Virus record (IMG/VR): IMGVR_UViG_3300027542_000004
Coordinates: 1 to 64,000 of that record
DNA length: 64,000 nt
Direction: 5' to 3' (one strand)
Source of the DNA: a virus
Taxonomy: Duplodnaviria; Caudoviricetes
The notes below the pieces were generated by a model. That model saw nothing but the letters and a program-made list of their open reading frames with translations, was not told the DNA's origin and made no database searches. This document shows positions 4,920 to 62,534 of this stretch, in pieces. Each line of letters begins with the position of its first letter. Position 1 is the stretch's first letter. The translations under genes were made by a program, and so were the position numbers.

Positions 4920-5249
4920 ATGGCAGATAACAACACTTTTCTTACGGGCAGCATTTGTCTTACTGACATACCCGTAAGCCAGATGAAAAAAGTAATGTGC
5001 AAAGACGGTAAGGAACGTGTGTTTCTTAATGTCGCAATCTTCGCAAAGAAGCAGCCTCAGACTTTTGGCGACCGCACATATACCCACTTTATATCCTGCG
5101 CACCTAAGAAAGAGGAGCGCATAGAGGGTGAAAACTACATCATGGGCGACCTTGAAACAAGGTCATCCAAACCTCAGACACCGACAACGGAAGACGTTGC
5201 AAATGCTCCCAGCTTCGCACCAAACGAAAAACCAGACCTACCATTCTAA
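4920..5249 (+). CDS. SSB-like protein
   Basis: Small beta-rich ORF ending in DLPF. Confidence 0.55.
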   Translation: MADNNTFLTGSICLTDIPVSQMKKVMCKDGKERVFLNVAIFAKKQPQTFGDRTYTHFISCAPKKEERIEGENYIMGDLETRSSKPQTPTTEDVANAPSFAPNEKPDLPF

Positions 5250-5310
5250 GAATCACTTTCACTCGGCTATATCGTGGCAAACCCACGGTATAGCCATAAA
5301 TAAACATAGA

Positions 5311-6897
5311 ATGAACTCAGCTTTATTAACTGATGGCTATAAATTAGACCATCGCAGACAATATCCGGCAGGAACGGAATATGTCTATTCAAACTGGACT
5401 CCACGCAGTAACGAGTATCTCAAGGAAGCCGAAGATGGTGCAGTGGTGTTCGGTATTCAGTATTTCATCAAGAAATATCTGATAGAGAACTTCAATCGCC
5501 ACTTCTTTAACAAGCCGGAAGATGAGGCAGTCGCATCATTCAAACGCCGCATCGATACATTTCTTGGCAAGAATGAGGTCGGCAAGGAACATATAAGGGA
5601 GCTTCATAAACTTGGCTATCTGCCTATCAAGATGAAATCACTCCCGGAGGGTTCTATATGCCCCATTCGTGTGCCGATGGTCACAGTTATCAACACAAAC
5701 CCCAAATTCTTCTGGCTTACCAATTATTTGGAAACCATCATGTCTTGTGAGTTCTGGCTCCCAATGACATCAGCCACTATCGCCCGTATCTACCGCAAGG
5801 AACTTGAACGTCATGCCGAAAAGACCGGCTTCACACCTGACGTTAATCTTGGTTTTCTGTGCCACGATTTTTCAATGCGTGGAATGGCAGGTCTTGAAGC
5901 CGCTATTACAAGCGGTATGGGTCATCTGACATCATTCGTAGGCAGTGAAACACTCCCGGCTATTGATGCGGTAGAAGAATACTACAACGCAGATGCGGAA
6001 AAGGAAATCATCGCAATGACTGTACCAGCATCGGAACATAGCGTTATGTGTGCCGGTGGCAAAGATGATGAAATCGGCACATTCAAAAGGTTTCTTACTG
6101 AAATCTATCCCACAGGCTTTTGCAGCATCGTAAGCGACACATGGGATTTATGGCAAGTCGTTACTGACTTCTTGCCACGCCTCAAGGACATCATAATGAA
6201 TCGGGATGGTCGTTTGGTCGTTCGCCCCGACAGTGGAAACCCAGTAGATATTATCTGTGGTGTCAATCCGGAAGACTGCGTTGAAATCAATGGTAAAGAG
6301 TACCATATCCCCGGTGTAATGAGGGATGCGCAGTATTCTGAATCAATTCAAGATGCTATCAGATGCTATCCTAATGACCCTGTTTATATGGCGATGGAAG
6401 TATCACCTGCTGAAAAGAAAGGTGTGTATGAACTTCTGTGGGATATATTCGGTGGAATTACCAACGAAAAGGGTTACAAAGTCCTTGATACCCACATCGG
6501 AGTCATCTATGGGGACAGCATCACTATCGAACGTCAGAAAGAAATCTATCGCAGACTTGAAGCAAAAGGTTTTGCAGCCACAAATCTCGTTTTGGGAATT
6601 GGCTCTTATACCTATCAATATCGCACCCGTGATAGCCTCGGCTTCGCTATGAAAGCAACATGGTGTCAAGTGAATGGCGAACCGCGAGAAATCTTCAAAT
6701 CGCCCAAAACTGATAGTGGAATGAAGAAGTCACTCAAGGGGCTTATCCGCGTTGACAAGGACGAAAACGGCAAATTCTATGCTACCGATTGTGTAAGCAA
6801 AGAACAGGAAGCAGGTGGTTGCCTTGAAACCGTCTTTGAAGACGGAAAGCTCGTAAAAGAAGTTTCATTTTCAGAAATCCGTGAAAGACTATGTTAA
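5311..6897 (+). CDS. Nicotinamide phosphoribosyltransferase-family protein (Namat-like, NARP1)
   Basis: TDGYK..H..QYP, HDFSMRG, PASEHS, VSDTWD, RPDSG, YGDSIT motifs. Confidence 0.9.
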   Translation: MNSALLTDGYKLDHRRQYPAGTEYVYSNWTPRSNEYLKEAEDGAVVFGIQYFIKKYLIENFNRHFFNKPEDEAVASFKRRIDTFLGKNEVGKEHIRELHKLGYLPIKMKSLPEGSICPIRVPMVTVINTNPKFFWLTNYLETIMSCEFWLPMTSATIARIYRKELERHAEKTGFTPDVNLGFLCHDFSMRGMAGLEAAITSGMGHLTSFVGSETLPAIDAVEEYYNADAEKEIIAMTVPASEHSVMCAGGKDDEIGTFKRFLTEIYPTGFCSIVSDTWDLWQVVTDFLPRLKDIIMNRDGRLVVRPDSGNPVDIICGVNPEDCVEINGKEYHIPGVMRDAQYSESIQDAIRCYPNDPVYMAMEVSPAEKKGVYELLWDIFGGITNEKGYKVLDTHIGVIYGDSITIERQKEIYRRLEAKGFAATNLVLGIGSYTYQYRTRDSLGFAMKATWCQVNGEPREIFKSPKTDSGMKKSLKGLIRVDKDENGKFYATDCVSKEQEAGGCLETVFEDGKLVKEVSFSEIRERLC

Positions 6898-31755: not shown

Positions 31756-31828
31756 CGCGGGTTGGAGCAGTTGGAAGCTCGCCAGTTTAACTTGCTGGAG
31801 GTCGTCGGTTCGAGTCCGACACCCGCTA
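31756..31828 (+). tRNA. Initiator-like tRNA body with AAC anticodon (reads GUU)
   Basis: C1/U72 mismatch, GCGGGT/ACCCGC stem, A73, D stem GAGC/GCTC, anticodon arm CCAGT-TTAACTT-GCTGG, T arm GTCGG-TTCGAGT-CCGAC; CCA not encoded. Confidence 0.88.
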
Positions 31829-31856
31829 CAAATAAAATCACTTACAAACAAAATCA

Positions 31857-32255: not shown

Positions 32256-32456
32256 GTTAAACGTAGAATTGATAACAACTATGGCCCCCGTCGGAACATG
32301 AACGGTGCCGGTGTCGGTGGCCGACTCGTAGCCCGTCGCACCCCTGCGGGCGTAGTTGCTGGTCGTAGCCAGCTCGGAAATCGTGAACAGCGACGCGCTG
32401 ACCTCCGTGCGGCCTTTGCAAAAGAGATTCGCGCCGCTGGTGGAACAACCGGCTAA
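32256..32456 (+). CDS. 66 aa Arg/Gly-rich protein with proposed GTT start (absent from ORF track)
   Basis: TGA-GTT-AAA opens VKRRIDNNYGPRRNMNGAG...GGTTG*; fills the gap between ASCH and PAPS-reductase genes. Confidence 0.65.
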   Translation, partial: VKRRIDNNYGPRRNMNGAGVGGRLVARRTPAGVVAGRSQLGNREQRRADLRAAFAKEIRAAGGTTG

Positions 32457-48569: not shown

Positions 48570-48789
48570 ATCGTTGGTCTTTTGTTGTCGTTTAACTTTG
48601 ATGATGCAAAGTTATAGAATAAAATCTATATATGCAAATAAAATATAGTCTAAACACTATTATTTAACAATTATTAACAATAGGCTAAAATCTATAAATA
48701 ATAAAAATAATAGCGTTTAGTCTAATTTAATTTTGTAGATTAAATTTTTTTGTTTAATTTTGCACCATTAAAAATATAGATTAAAGGCT

Positions 48790-49293
48790 ATGGATATAAA
48801 GCAAAGAATAAAAGAGGCAGGGATGACCGTCAGTGAAGTGGCGGCTCGGATGCCACGACCGGATGGAGGTGTGGGAATTGCACAGGCTTCATTATCTGCT
48901 ATAATTAATGGCAATCCGACTATAAATAAATTGAAAGACATTGCCGATATTCTTGGTATATTGCTTTCGGAACTTGTTAAGGATGAATCTTCGTTAACTC
49001 AAAGGATTCACTGCCCTTATTGTGGAAAATCAATTCGTATAACATTGACAGCAGAAAAAGAAGAGCATCGGCATACACCGATAAGGAAAACTGTTGACTT
49101 ACGTCTGAATACTGATGATGGTACAAAATATAGATATAAGCATCCCCATTCAAGAGAAGAAAGAATGGCTATTCTGGAACTTCAAACCTTACCGGGTGAG
49201 GATGGCATGGTTAGTGTCCTTAATACAAATCCCATTGATTCGGATGGAAACGAAGTATTTGATATAGAATATGACCGTTTGATGCCAATATAA
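48790..49293 (+). CDS. XRE HTH regulator with zinc ribbon and C-terminal extension
   Basis: GMTVSEVA.RM...GNPT..KL..IA..LG; CPYCG. Confidence 0.8.
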   Translation: MDIKQRIKEAGMTVSEVAARMPRPDGGVGIAQASLSAIINGNPTINKLKDIADILGILLSELVKDESSLTQRIHCPYCGKSIRITLTAEKEEHRHTPIRKTVDLRLNTDDGTKYRYKHPHSREERMAILELQTLPGEDGMVSVLNTNPIDSDGNEVFDIEYDRLMPI

Positions 49294-49316
49294 TTTTATC
49301 ACAAAAATATAATAAT

Positions 49317-49925
49317 ATGAGAATATTTTCATTATTTATCGCATTTATGTTGACTTTCAACATATTCGCGGAAGAAGTCTTAATAGGGGGTTATCACGAT
49401 AACAATGGCGATGGCGAACATAATGTTATTGCTCGGCTTAAAGAAAATGGAAGTAAGATTGATTGTATCTATATTTTTGTTGCTTCAACAATGGGCAACG
49501 GATACTATCGTATAGACAGCAATAAAATTCCGGAATTTGTGACTGCATTGAGTGAAGTAAAAACAAAATTTGAGGAATGGTCAACACAAGCAATAGACAA
49601 TGGCATAGAAAAATTTACGAAACAAATCAGTGTTAACTTTCCAAAGGTGGTAGTTTATCTATCTGGAAAATCCAATTTCAATTTTTCGCAAAAGCTCAAT
49701 GCTCTTTTTCAAGTTGACAATGGGATTCCTTGTGTTTGGATATACGCTTCAACATCAACTAATTTTTCCAAATATAATAACAAGAAGGAAGTTTTCTCAA
49801 TGCTTTTTGAGAATCCATCTGACATAGATGGACTGATTTCTATTCTACGAGATGAAGAAACAATTTTGCAGTTAGCCCATAAAAATCTTCAAATCGAAAG
49901 GAAATTCGATGACCTCTTTCAATAG
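49317..49925 (+). CDS. AT-rich exported protein (moron-like)
   Basis: N-terminal signal-peptide-like MRIFSLFIAFMLTFNIFA. Confidence 0.65.
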   Translation: MRIFSLFIAFMLTFNIFAEEVLIGGYHDNNGDGEHNVIARLKENGSKIDCIYIFVASTMGNGYYRIDSNKIPEFVTALSEVKTKFEEWSTQAIDNGIEKFTKQISVNFPKVVVYLSGKSNFNFSQKLNALFQVDNGIPCVWIYASTSTNFSKYNNKKEVFSMLFENPSDIDGLISILRDEETILQLAHKNLQIERKFDDLFQ

Positions 49926-50064
49926 TTTTCAAGAATCCCTATAAACAATTTGCGCATCAGTCATCCGATTGGTGCGCTTTCTTTTTGTGCATACATGAAA
50001 GGCGACACGCATCAACGCGCATCGCCATCCGGCAGTAAAAAAAAGAAAAATTGTGTAGAAAGAC

Positions 50065-51339
50065 TTATTGTTCAGAAGTTATTTCCTCATTATCAATGGT
50101 CAACGCGCAGAAGCCTTTACAAGCTCCACGGAAACCATTGTGGTATTCTTTGGCAGTCATACGCTTCTTGTTTGGCAACTGCAAAATATCAATCGAAAGC
50201 AACATATCCTGACAGGCGACCATCAGTTTGCCATTCTCCCAGAACCATTCTCCGGGTGCGCGGAAGCCGCGAGGAATGTCAGTAAGACTTGCCTTGTGAA
50301 TCTTCACATCGGTTGCGGAATCTGCCTCAAGCAACCTTACCGAAGTCCATGCAGTCGGCACTGACCCTGCGATAGCCGGGGTCTTTGGATATTGTTCGCC
50401 ACAAATAACTGATGAATGGGCGCGTATGAAGTTATGAACGACTTCTGCGGAATCAGTCCAACGGATAAAGGCATCATTGCGGTAGAGCTTGGGCGCATGG
50501 CTCGGTTGAAAGAAATCGCATATAAGTTCTGACTGCGGAACTCCATTGCACGAATGACCAATACGCTGGATTGCATCATCCATCATATCCGCACCGAAAT
50601 TGCGAAGTCTGATATGCACTTCTTCCGCGCTTTCTTCCGGGCCTATGTAGATTCCGAGGTTGTTGATGATTTTGCCTGTATCCACACCCTTATCGATTAC
50701 GAAAGTGGTGATGCCGGTCATCGCGCTTCCGTCCTTGATTGCGGATGTGATAGTGGATGCGCCCCGGTACATTGGAAGAAGCGATGAATGGAGATTGATG
50801 ACTCCCCATTTAGGTATGCGGAACAATTCAGATGGTAATATGCAGTATTCAACCACAACTCCCAACGTGGGATTCAGATTGCGGATTTTTTGAAGAAAAG
50901 ATTCTGATTTAAGTTGAAGATGCGATGGCTGATATACAAGAAGACCTGCCTCTTCCGCATAAACACTGACAGGTGATGGGCAACACTTGTTTCCGCGACC
51001 GCAAGGCTTATTCTCCATAGTCACGACAGCAGCCACATCATATCCCTTTTCAACGAGCATCTTTAGAGTCGGCACAGCGAAATGTCCGTTTCCGAAAAAT
51101 ACAATCCTGATATTATTCCGATTCACCGGCTTTTCTTGGTCATATTCGGGATAAGCCGATATTGCGTCTTCCGGAACAATGCTATATCCATCGGCCTGAT
51201 TGACCTTAACTAAGTAATTGCCATCTTCATCCGGGCAAAGGATTCTGCACGGCACGAAAAACTGATTTTCAAATTGGTCGCCGGCGCAATGCCCAACCAC
51301 ATTTACCAAATGACCAACGCGGTATCTTGGAGCTTTCAT
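50065..51339 (-). CDS. fmt: Methionyl-tRNA formyltransferase homolog with N-terminal extra domain
   Basis: IVFFG...FAVP.L, VVT...KP.GRG, INLH.SLLP.YRGA, G.DTG, APK, C-terminal LQLP.KKRM. Confidence 0.88.
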   Translation of the reverse strand: MKAPRYRVGHLVNVVGHCAGDQFENQFFVPCRILCPDEDGNYLVKVNQADGYSIVPEDAISAYPEYDQEKPVNRNNIRIVFFGNGHFAVPTLKMLVEKGYDVAAVVTMENKPCGRGNKCCPSPVSVYAEEAGLLVYQPSHLQLKSESFLQKIRNLNPTLGVVVEYCILPSELFRIPKWGVINLHSSLLPMYRGASTITSAIKDGSAMTGITTFVIDKGVDTGKIINNLGIYIGPEESAEEVHIRLRNFGADMMDDAIQRIGHSCNGVPQSELICDFFQPSHAPKLYRNDAFIRWTDSAEVVHNFIRAHSSVICGEQYPKTPAIAGSVPTAWTSVRLLEADSATDVKIHKASLTDIPRGFRAPGEWFWENGKLMVACQDMLLSIDILQLPNKKRMTAKEYHNGFRGACKGFCALTIDNEEITSEQ

Positions 51340-51605
51340 TTTGATGAACCGGTCTGGATGTCGATACGTGCGCCGCACTGCGGACAGATGATGATAGCGG
51401 AATTTGGCTCAAGGTAATCTGTGAATAAAGAAGATACCGGCACTTCCAGCACTTTTGCAATTCGCTCAAGCGTGGATATGTTAGGATTGCCCTTTTCATT
51501 AACGATGTTGCCGAGTGTCTGAGGGGTGATTCCCATCTTTTCCGCGAGGCTTTTAAGGGTCATGCCCTTAGCAGCGACAATGTTCTTGATTCTGAATTTT
51601 GCCAT
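51336..51605 (-). CDS. XRE HTH regulator with zinc ribbon, coupled to fmt
   Basis: GMTLKSLAEKMGITPQ...NP.ISTLERIA; CPQCG; ATGA overlap with fmt. Confidence 0.88.
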   Translation of the reverse strand: MAKFRIKNIVAAKGMTLKSLAEKMGITPQTLGNIVNEKGNPNISTLERIAKVLEVPVSSLFTDYLEPNSAIIICPQCGARIDIQTGSSK

Positions 51606-51794
51606 AGTAAAAGTAAATACTGATTTGGGTAGTTTCTTAATTTTTTTTGCAAAAATACTCTTCCATAGGTACTTATAACGAGTCTAAAGAGTGAAATATT
51701 GTTAAATACTGATTAAAACAATAGTAAATACTTGCTCAATAAATAATATTAGTGTATCTTTGCAGCGGTTTAGTTATAGACCTAATGAGAAAAG

Positions 51795-53426: not shown

Positions 53427-54209
53427 ATGAGAATCAAGAAGCAAAAATCGTTCAAGAACGGTACGGTGTACTGCCTTGAGCTGGAAGACGGAATGTTGGT
53501 TGAAACAACCGACACCTTTCTGCCTTACTACACCAAAGACGCAATCGGTCGCAAGCAGAATTTTCTTGACAACAATCAGCTCGGTAGTCGTGCGGAACGC
53601 TGGATGATAGGCGTATCCACAATGAGCGGATGCCCGGTTCATTGCAAATTCTGCGCTACCGGCAACATGAAGCGTTGGCGCAATCTTACGGCTGACGAAA
53701 TTGTCGGTCAGGTGGAATTTGCCATCGCACAGGCAGGATTCAACCCGGCAGATGCCCGCGAGTTCAAAATCAACTACACGCGCATGGGTGAGCCTTTCTT
53801 GAACATCGACGCAGTTAAAGAAGCCATTGCCCGCATCACGGAAAAATATCCGAACACACATCACTACGTTTCAACCATCGGCATCGCCGGCAGCGATTTC
53901 TCTTTTGTCAAGGGGAACGTGACGCTCCAGATAAGTCTGCATAGCTTTGACGATGACAAGCGTAACTGGCTTATCCCTTACCCCAAGAAGATGACCATCG
54001 AAGAGCTGGGGCGCATACGCACGGAAAGCAACCTTAAAACGACCATCAACCTTACACTCGTTGACGAGTCGGATTTCGATGCTGAAAAGCTGGCGAAGTA
54101 TTTTGACAAGGATTATTTCTTTGTCAAGCTATCGCCCATCAATCCCAACAGCATATCGGAAAAGAACAATCTCGGTAACGGTGTTATCGAGGGCGTGAAC
54201 ATTGTATAA
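53427..54209 (+). CDS. RlmN/Cfr-like radical SAM protein, N-terminal part
   Basis: GCPVHCKFCATG, RNLT.DEIV.QV, MGEP..N, VST.G, ISLH. Confidence 0.85.
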   Translation: MRIKKQKSFKNGTVYCLELEDGMLVETTDTFLPYYTKDAIGRKQNFLDNNQLGSRAERWMIGVSTMSGCPVHCKFCATGNMKRWRNLTADEIVGQVEFAIAQAGFNPADAREFKINYTRMGEPFLNIDAVKEAIARITEKYPNTHHYVSTIGIAGSDFSFVKGNVTLQISLHSFDDDKRNWLIPYPKKMTIEELGRIRTESNLKTTINLTLVDESDFDAEKLAKYFDKDYFFVKLSPINPNSISEKNNLGNGVIEGVNIV

Positions 54210-60983: not shown

Positions 60984-61430
60984 ATGAAAAATGACATCTC
61001 ACCCAACAAGGAAACGGTTGTCTTCGGTAATGATTCCTCAGTAATCCGCAAGTACATTGCCGGCATCGCCGGTGGTCGTACACTGGACTGCTCGGATTTT
61101 GTCGATGACACTGTTCTCGCCGGCCACGTCATCATCAAAAAGGCCGACGGAAAGTATGCCCCGATGCCCGTCATCGCGGCTGTTCCCGCGAAGCCCGCAC
61201 AGGGCGAAAACCCTACTGTTGCGGCTCAGCCCGCCAAGTACGGCACACTCCCTACCGGCGCATCCTACGCCGGCGTTCTCTATCGCTCAATCAGTAAGAA
61301 AAACCCCGCTGCTTCCATTATGACGATAGGTATTGTCAATCCCGACATGACCCCCTATCCCATGACAGACATCCTGACCGCGTTCACGGCTGCCTGCAAA
61401 ATTTCCTTTGAAAAGGACGAAGAAGCATAA
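60984..61430 (+). CDS. Probable head decoration protein
   Basis: Between scaffold and capsid; GGRTLD, AGH.II, GVL motifs. Confidence 0.65.
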   Translation: MKNDISPNKETVVFGNDSSVIRKYIAGIAGGRTLDCSDFVDDTVLAGHVIIKKADGKYAPMPVIAAVPAKPAQGENPTVAAQPAKYGTLPTGASYAGVLYRSISKKNPAASIMTIGIVNPDMTPYPMTDILTAFTAACKISFEKDEEA

Positions 61431-61445
61431 AAACCGAGTATCTGA

Positions 61446-62534
61446 GTTAAACAGTCATTCTATTTCGATTACGCGCAGAAATACTTCCCCGGCCTCGTTC
61501 TGGCCGTGGTTGAACGTCTGAACGAAAAGCGCAACAACTCCGCGCAGACGTATCTCTACAAAGAGAAACTTCGCCCCCAGTTCTCGCTTGATGGTCGCTG
61601 GGCTTCCATTCTTGCCGAATACACCCGTGTAGCCGCCGACGTTGTGGCACTTGACTCCGAGCTTCCGCTCAAGAGCCGTGACACGCTGGAGGTTGCTTCC
61701 GGCACTATCCCCAAGATAGGTATGAAGCTCTACCTGACCGAAAAGCAGATGAAGGACGTTGATTCGATGATTGCACAGGGTCTTCCCCTTGAAACCATCA
61801 TCAACAACATCTTCGCCGACACCCCCCGTTGCATCGAGGGCATCTGGGAGCGCATCGAAGACATCTTCCTTTCCGAGCTTTCGTCCGGCGTGGGCATTTC
61901 CGAACGTAACAACGGCACCGGCGTGCGCATCAACATGAACTTCTATGAGGCCAATCAGTTCCTCGTATCGGCTCTGTGGAGCGCAACTACCGCCACACCG
62001 CTTGACGACATTCAGAAAGTCGTTGACAAGTCCATCGAAGACTCCAACACCATCATCGACGCATACGCCGACGATACCGCCCTCCAGCTTCTTTACAAGA
62101 ACGGTCAGGTGCGTGCGCAGTTTGCCTTTGACCAAGGCATCGCCATGACTGCATCAACAGCCATCCCCGTGCTTGACCTTTCCAAGCTCCAGCAGCTTTT
62201 CCTCACCAAGTGGAACATCCGTCTGCACCGCGTTTCGCGCCGTGTGAAGACCGAGCTTAACGGAGTTAAGCAGAACCACAACCCGTGGAAGAAAGGCACT
62301 ATTACCTTTGTCTGCGATGAAGAGCTTGGCTCGCTTGTATGGACTAACGTCGCCGAAGTCAACCGCCGTGTTGATGGTGTAGTCTATCAGGTAGCCGACG
62401 AATACATCCTTGCAAAGAAGTATTCCAAGACAGACCCCCTCCGCGAGTTCACCGCTTCCGAGGCTATGGTTGTCCCCGTGTTGAACAACGTTGACCGTAT
62501 CTATACGCTCGACTCTCAGACTGTTCAGGAATGA
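61446..62534 (+). CDS. Major capsid protein; proposed GTT start (ORF track uses GTG 61506)
   Basis: ~362 aa in head operon; frame opens at TGA-GTT-AAA 15 nt after the previous stop. Confidence 0.8.
   Translation, partial: VKQSFYFDYAQKYFPGLVLAVVERLNEKRNNSAQTYLYKEKLRPQFSLDGRWASILAEYTRVAADVVALDSELPLKSRDTLEVASGTIPKIGMKLYLTEKQMKDVDSMIAQGLPLETIINNIFADTPRCIEGIWERIEDIFLSELSSGVGISERNNGTGVRINMNFYEANQFLVSALWSATTATPLDDIQKVVDKSIEDSNTIIDAYADDTALQLLYKNGQVRAQFAFDQGIAMTASTAIPVLDLSKLQQLFLTKWNIRLHRVSRRVKTELNGVKQNHNPWKKGTITFVCDEELGSLVWTNVAEVNRRVDGVVYQVADEYILAKKYSKTDPLREFTASEAMVVPVLNNVDRIYTLDSQTVQE

Follow-up and report, generated by a model that had tools for sequence, protein, structure and literature searches.

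A 64,000-nucleotide stretch of DNA from a mouse-gut phage (Caudoviricetes; positions 1 to 64,000 of IMG/VR record IMGVR_UViG_3300027542_000004), hereafter the window, carries a gene for a tRNA formyltransferase, fmt, with an extra N-terminal domain. On balance, this gene probably encodes an active aminoacyl-tRNA formyltransferase that serves as the third part of a phage valine-start system, the other two parts being an initiator-type tRNA with a valine anticodon and a valine codon at the start of the major capsid gene. Textbooks have bacterial translation begin with formyl-methionine carried by a single dedicated tRNA. The natural virus described here seems to run a parallel valine start channel, to which some lineages have added a formylase of their own, and our literature searches found no paper on a natural valine-start system with its own formylase.

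In the mechanism that we propose, the host valyl-tRNA synthetase (ValRS) would charge the phage tRNA(AAC) with valine, as suggested by its A35, C36 and A73, and the phage Fmt would formylate the resulting Val-tRNA(AAC), a step done poorly by ordinary Fmt. The formyl-Val-tRNA would then start translation at GUU codons, including the one that opens the major capsid gene, so that tRNA, start codon and formylase would together form a start system owned by the phage. That the enzyme may formylate a valine-type initiator tRNA of the phage was the suggestion of the original prediction, made from the window alone, and on comparative evidence it is the best-supported reading.

The long-form formyltransferase

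The linear virus record, of which the window makes up the first 64 kb, is 96,654 bp long and has a completeness rating of 86%. The fmt gene lies in an open reading frame that spans 50065-51378 on the minus strand, with a conserved start ATG at 51339, and is built as follows.

50065-51339, minus strand: long-form fmt, 424 amino acids (aa) plus stop, from the conserved ATG (MKAPRY...)
51109-51339, minus strand: N-terminal extension, residues 1-77, a predicted Tudor/SH3-like small beta-barrel without a Pfam match
50572-51108, minus strand: catalytic Formyl_trans_N domain, residues 78-256, with loop 1 (GRG, R115), N182, H184 and D220
50128-50487, minus strand: tRNA-binding Fmt C-terminal domain, residues 285-404 (Pfam PF02911), aligned to residues 243-303 of 1fmt

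The complete catalytic and C-terminal domains that had been read from the sequence are borne out by Pfam (PF00551 Formyl_trans_N, 3.2e-30, residues 78-256; PF02911 Formyl_trans_C, 6.2e-14, residues 285-404), and the roughly 75 extra residues noted at the N-terminus prove to be a conserved 77 aa, for which no Pfam family matched. Among NCBIfam models the protein scores 189.1 bits with TIGR00460 (fmt), 95 with ArnA, 53 with PurN and 18 with dTDP-sugar formyltransferase. A sequence search of the PDB gave Fmt as its six top matches, the best being E. coli 1fmt/2fmt (2.2e-37, 132 bits), with ArnA at 74 bits (1e-19) and the sugar enzymes WlaRD, WbkC and FdtF at no more than 40. The original prediction had asked whether the protein might cluster with sugar-nucleotide formyltransferases; Fmt wins by score in both searches (189 against 95 and 132 against 74), and by tree the long Fmt is a clade beside the Fmt of Bacteroidota.

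The residues on which an Fmt depends are also in place. Loop 1, the Fmt insertion at residues 34-49 with the arginine needed for recognition, is described in one report (PMC8843374) as critical in recognizing the initiator tRNA; it aligns residue for residue with that of 1fmt (TMENKPCGRGNK in the phage and TQPDRPAGRGKK in 1fmt), including the GRG motif. N182 and H184 align to N108 and H110 of 1fmt, and N182, H184, D220 and R115 are invariant across 30 long forms and common also to 88 ordinary Fmts. The catalytic set Asn108/His110/Asp146 and the SLLP motif are thus kept in the long forms and invariant across the family, which argues for retained catalysis. A full-length AlphaFold2 model, built on the long-form alignment, reached a predicted local distance difference test (pLDDT) score of 90.2 and a predicted template modelling score of 0.87, and Foldseek matches it best to Fmt structures, at target TM-scores of 0.85-0.91. 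We are highly confident, on these grounds, that the gene encodes a tRNA-directed enzyme of the Fmt type. A 16-residue insert beginning SVICGEQYPKTPAIAG lies between the linker and the C-terminal domain (50362-50415 of the window, fmt residues 309-326); it is found in the nine closest relatives only, and the pLDDT of the model is lower there, at 71-77.

The long form is a family rather than a single oddity. A protein search returned about 48 clusters of 391-434 aa at 89-100% query cover and down to 39% identity, below which it yields ordinary Fmts of 300-330 aa. A 69-row tree puts the long forms, together with one distant viral form (L010), on one side of a branch with a Shimodaira-Hasegawa-like approximate likelihood ratio test (SH-aLRT) support of 99, next to a group of Bacteroidota Fmts to which four host enzymes belong (support 90); a tree of 64 rows built without the N-domain again gave the long-form clade an SH-aLRT of 99, both trees being quick ones without an outgroup. 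From these comparisons the long Fmt appears to derive from a Bacteroidota-type fmt and to form one clade. Two phage lineages that carry it are referred to below, namely lineage A, that of the window, and lineage B (G008 and G009), in which Fmt is 32% identical and fmt adjoins portal and terminase genes.

Long forms are just four among the 80 best GTDB loci. They lie in four lysogens, Lepagella muris, a Bacteroides sp. metagenome-assembled genome (MAG), Muribaculaceae Isolate-036 and a Porphyromonadaceae MAG, where they score 195.6-207.4 bits with TIGR00460. All four of these genomes have a separate normal fmt (268-279 bits) on another contig; the long form is a second fmt beside the host copy. 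Two other searches yielded candidates that were set aside. A metagenome scan for long Fmt gave, among the matches listed, ordinary short Fmts only, at 39% identity or less, and in a phage tblastn with Fmt all 40 matches were below 60% identity, the best of them (H1) being a bacterial fmt of the usual kind (324 aa), with chloride channel and rpe genes as neighbours and no tRNA.

What sets the family apart within the catalytic domain is a small group of substitutions, seen when 50 long forms are compared with 88 ordinary Fmts (E. coli numbering from the 1fmt alignment). All 50 long forms carry N84, at a position occupied by T in 74 of the 88 ordinary Fmts (E. coli T11); G85 is present in 49 of 50, against P in 72 of 88 (P12), and E or D at position 164 in all 50, against A in 83 of 88 (A89), while T196 is found in 45 of 50 at a position that is P in 88 of 88 ordinary Fmts (P122). 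All four lie beside the catalytic motifs along the sequence.

The N-terminal extension is just as characteristic. It is kept in 30 long forms, with G9 and Y42 invariant, and P36, D39, G40, Y42 and Y52 are common even to the N-domain of lineage B. The structure prediction that had been suggested for it gave, for the domain modelled alone (pLDDT 84.8), a putative small Tudor/SH3-like barrel made up of four strands plus one short helix. Foldseek matched this model to the PHF20 Tudor domain (3P8D; E 2.7e-3, target TM-score 0.86, root mean square deviation 1.4 over 59 columns), and VIA gave matches of Z 6-8.2 that include the PSHCP Tudor (6NNB) and the KOW domain of NusG. The best structural matches are thus Tudor, chromo, PWWP and KOW domains; such scores are common among unrelated small folds, so they name a fold class and no function. 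The model superposes on these barrels, yet sequence identity is 6-21%, with no sequence relation. Searched against 1.84 billion representatives, a profile of the domain gave 36 matches and placed it only at the N-terminus of Fmts of 373-426 aa and in two short proteins. Proteins matched in several stretches were taken as compositional, those checked against Pfam being repeat proteins (chitin-binding CBM_14, SprB, PPC/PKD). An Atlas search for relatives of the domain found none. The extra barrel may add binding of the tRNA or of a partner.

The valine-anticodon tRNA and the capsid start codon

The two other parts of the proposed system lie elsewhere in the window.

31756-31829, plus strand: initiator-type tRNA, anticodon AAC, with C1xU72, G2:C71, C3:G70, A11:U24 and A73
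61446-62534, plus strand: major capsid gene with a GTT start, directly past an in-frame TGA; phrog_29 major head protein

The tRNA is the only one of the window. Its anticodon stem and loop are altered (U31.G39, U37, U38), and position 72 in the tRNA of relatives is U or C, never G. The original prediction had proposed that co-occurrence of fmt with this tRNA be examined across genomes. We did so in 14 long-Fmt records (the window, G001-G007, the four lysogen genomes, G008 and G009) and found a valine-anticodon initiator-type tRNA in 12. In lineage A it accompanies long Fmt in the window and in G001, G002, G004, G005 and G006 (G004 and G018 being evidently one contig present in two collections), as well as in all four lysogens, there on fmt's own contig. 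In lineage B it lies about 9 kb from fmt and has the anticodon UAC, with C1xU72, A11:U24 and the same odd loop. The tRNA was not found in the two remaining records, G003 and G007, which are fragments stopping short of its expected site about 18 kb from fmt.

The capsid gene offers a second line of evidence. Among the relatives compared, third-position variation starts immediately past the GTT, the spacer upstream of it has indels, and ATC takes the place of the GTG that the window has 20 codons further on. Of 16 capsid homologues in IMG/VR, 10 have the GTT start and six have ATG at the homologous codon (MEKSFYF as against VKQSFYF). The capsid homologue of G008, in lineage B, has a GTA start past a TGA in the same TGA-GTN-AA context, so that lineage A pairs AAC with a GTT capsid start and lineage B pairs UAC with GTA; the GTA of G008 matches its UAC, and start codon and anticodon therefore vary in step. 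Among the records searched, all seven whose capsid starts on GTN (G001-G005, G007, G008) have Fmt and none of the six with an ATG capsid start (G019-G023, G072) does, a count that leaves out four small GTT-start fragments (L213, L214, L215, L219) as well as L227. Over the whole window, the string GAGTTAAA occurs five times against 2.29 expected, a count reached by 7 of 100 shuffles and not significant alone. Openings of the form GA-GTT-AAA stand at or one codon past an in-frame stop at 32256 and 34675 (plus strand), where the first canonical start comes 14 and 28 codons into the respective reading frames, which makes them candidate GTT starts.

The tRNA itself is far more widespread than the enzyme. 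A pattern of D-arm and anticodon loop picked out at least 97 IMG/VR viral contigs with a valine-anticodon initiator-type tRNA. Counted by locus among the matches listed, with one record possibly counting repeatedly, the anticodons are GAC (81), AAC (22) and UAC (7), and all of these tRNAs have a 1:72 mismatch and A73, every GAC form having C1xA72. The loop of this family reads UU-NAC-UU and is closed by U31.G39 (L230 1501-1575, L231 1501-1574, L234-L325).

Several observations weigh against tying the enzyme to this tRNA. A TIGR00460 search of 92 further tRNA-bearing records listed found Fmt only in G008 and G009, leaving 90 without it, and the completeness rating of 15 of these is 90% or more; in G020 and G021, each with a rating of 100%, a GAC tRNA goes with an ATG capsid start and no Fmt. 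The co-occurrence count leaves out about 25 distant long-form clusters (P0022-P0048, 39-55% identical), and it rests on two phage lineages with homologous capsids rather than on numerous independent events. The window protein falls just below the equivalog cut-off of TIGR00460 (189.1 against 201.5 bits). The host initiator tRNA has C1xU72, G2:C71, C3:G70 and A11:U24, as does the phage tRNA, so the phage Fmt could equally act on host Met-tRNA, and a preference for Val over Met is purely something that we infer. Since the phages with the tRNA are mostly without Fmt, the tRNA system evidently runs without a phage enzyme, and the 90 of 92 records lacking one make Fmt an accessory and no requirement. 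Judged by these distributions, Fmt is an add-on within a broader class of valine starter tRNAs carried by phages, seen where the capsid itself relies on a valine start.

The best surviving alternative, which we nonetheless consider unlikely, is that the phage Fmt is a general booster, an auxiliary metabolic gene that raises formylation of host Met-tRNAfMet during infection or lysogeny and has no tie to the valine tRNA. It would account for the retention of all Fmt determinants, for the likeness of the host and phage tRNAs at the positions just named and for the many valine-tRNA phages that do without the enzyme. It fits poorly with the long form being found only together with a valine initiator-type tRNA (in 12 records, two further ones of the 14 being uninformative fragments), with the yield of just nine long-Fmt loci in a family-pattern scan of IMG/VR and with hosts that already own a full-scoring fmt. 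The replacement of three near-universal Fmt residues, each in at least 49 of the 50 long forms, would be unexpected if the enzyme did the same job on the same substrate.

Much less probable is a protein that chiefly binds or regulates, in which the Tudor-like domain and the Fmt body retain or shield the phage tRNA, or attach to the ribosome or a synthetase, with catalysis secondary; the extra domain is conserved and confined to the long-Fmt family, and RNA or peptides are frequent ligands of small barrels with such a fold (the PSHCP Tudor and KOW matches being cases in point), while the invariance of the catalytic Asn, His and Asp and of SLLP across the family speaks for an enzyme. The least probable is an enzyme that merely resembles Fmt and formylates sugar nucleotides, nucleotides, modified bases or the like, a reading for which one could cite the score below the equivalog cut-off, a sole PHROG match to phrog_9240 ('phosphoribosylglycinamide formyltransferase') and the GNG that replaces the GTP motif of Fmt and resembles what we take to be the GNGSN substrate loop of PurN, and against which stand the conserved tRNA-binding C-terminal domain and loop 1 GRG, the low scores of PurN (53 bits) and of the sugar formyltransferases (40 bits or less) and the position of the family beside Bacteroidota Fmt in the tree.

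Returning to the valine-start system, we think it quite likely that the function of fmt is linked to the valine starter tRNA, and hold only tentatively that the enzyme has truly been re-tuned for valine. Possible, if rather doubtful, is a fuller scheme in which Fmt is either tuned to valine or relaxed in its choice of amino acid, the Tudor-like domain contacts the phage tRNA, ValRS or the ribosome, and some gut phages thereby own a complete, private three-part start pathway. Were this true, the pathway would serve the capsid, the most abundant protein, and would perhaps insulate late-gene translation from host control or defence. If the enzyme does prefer Val-tRNA, it would offer a ready-made part for orthogonal initiation and a natural experiment on amino-acid recognition by Fmt, and gene finders would be shown to miss phage genes, capsids included, that start with GTT or GTA.

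The HTH gene and the phage neighbourhood

In the lineage of the window, fmt shares an operon of two genes with a small XRE regulator, and the following features belong to it.

51336-51605, minus strand: XRE-type helix-turn-helix (HTH) gene, 89 aa, with a CxxC in its C-terminal part; stop codon and fmt ATG overlap as ATGA
51650-51657, minus strand: candidate promoter box TATTTTTG, 45-52 nt upstream of the HTH ATG, a consensus match only
50001-50026, minus strand: terminator-like hairpin of 11 pairs followed by TTTCATG, directly past the fmt stop

The gene upstream of fmt had been described as an XRE/zinc-ribbon gene. Its XRE assignment stands (PF01381 HTH_3, 2.3e-14, residues 6-58); the zinc ribbon does not, as the 89-aa protein has one CxxC knuckle (CPQC), the only two Cys of the whole protein, where two knuckles are needed for a full ribbon. 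Its proposed translational coupling to fmt is upheld by the ATGA, in which the fmt ATG overlaps the TGA stop of the HTH reading frame, and the same overlap is kept in relatives (L004 and L031). Both the N-terminal extension and the ATGA coupling are kept where Fmt is just 57% identical, which indicates that neither is an accident of annotation. The coupled HTH gene is kept in lineage A and missing upstream of fmt in lineage B, which makes it a local regulator outside the core of the system. The TATTTTTG box, also placed at L003 3023-3030 on the minus strand, fits what is presumably the Bacteroidota -7 promoter box, TAnnTTTG, and together with the terminator-like hairpin this candidate box would frame a two-gene HTH-fmt unit. 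More small HTH proteins ending in a single CxxC (CPYCGK, CPHCGK) are encoded at 48790-49293 of the window (plus strand) and at L004 12225-12503 (minus strand), and such HTH-CxxC regulators appear from their sequences to be a paralogous set in these phages.

The phage itself is temperate, with an integrase (236-1633) and a CI-like repressor (1639-2280) at the start of the window together with a primase/helicase, terminase, portal and major head protein. The original prediction had spoken of a prophage, a reasonable term given the integrase and repressor and the relatives that lie inside Muribaculaceae and Bacteroidales genomes. No peptide deformylase was found in the phage record, a weak negative in a record rated 86% complete. 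The genomes are mosaic. The capsid region of G017 is 100% identical to that of the window over 801 bases and its Fmt 58% identical (window 61300-62100 compared with L205, from G017, and L033), so that two diverged fmt alleles seem to have been swapped between otherwise near-identical phages.

Other neighbours include a 260-aa radical-SAM protein (PF04055, phrog_24834; 53427-54209, plus strand) that lies 2 kb from fmt, is kept in L031 and may be another translation-related gene of the same block, and a nicotinamide phosphoribosyltransferase gene of NAD salvage (phrog_448, 2.8e-199; 5128-6897, plus strand). Contigs from RNA libraries, in two runs from two studies, cover fmt and the HTH gene and are a weak hint of transcription, as DNA can occur in such libraries. 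In X17 and X18, fmt and the HTH gene are covered and no contig falls on 52-64 kb (replication and structural genes), a missing cover that proves nothing, and the RNA runs X15 and X16 gave short pieces only, at 95% likeness. One X18 contig, with a depth of 22.9, spans 48780-49939 of the window and carries the HTH-167 gene and a 202-aa signal-peptide-like gene that adjoins fmt, which may be a pair expressed in lysogeny.

Comparison with known systems

The nearest known relative is the bacterial Fmt (EC 2.1.2.9; E. coli 1FMT/2FMT; TIGR00460), the best match of the phage Fmt in both sequence and structure. The two share a two-domain fold, the Asn/His/Asp set, SLLP, the arginine of the loop 1 GRG and a basic C-terminal domain. 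Unlike its bacterial counterpart, the phage enzyme has an extra 77-aa N-terminal barrel, is a phage-borne second copy beside a host fmt, and has GNG in place of GTP, Glu or Asp in place of Ala89 and Thr in place of Pro122 (the last in 45 of 50 long forms). WlaRD, FdtF, WbkC and the N-terminal domain of ArnA have the same formyltransferase fold, and ArnA also has a C-terminal subdomain. ArnA and the sugar-nucleotide N-formyltransferases act on sugar nucleotides and not on tRNA; ArnA reaches 74-95 bits and the sugar enzymes no more than 40, against 132-189 for Fmt, and none scores above Fmt.

As a system, the closest parallel was made by engineering. In two reports on an engineered E. coli i-tRNA(AAC), initiation took place only at GUU, the N-termini were Val and formyl-Val, charging and formylation were limiting, the Vmax of E. 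coli FMT was about 60-fold lower with Val-tRNA than with Met-tRNA, and output rose 3-fold when overexpression of FMT was added to that of ValRS (bioRxiv 10.64898/2025.12.21.695813; 10.1101/2021.05.25.445580). The premise of the original prediction, that a standard Fmt is poor on Val-tRNA, is to this extent in print for E. coli. The likeness to the phage lies in the AAC anticodon, the GUU start and a formyltransferase added against poor formylation of Val-tRNA, a remedy that synthetic biologists needed and that the phage formylase would match. Unlike the engineered version, the phage system is natural, its tRNA is altered in the anticodon stem and loop as well, and as formylase it uses a diverged paralogue bearing a new domain instead of an extra dose of the host enzyme.

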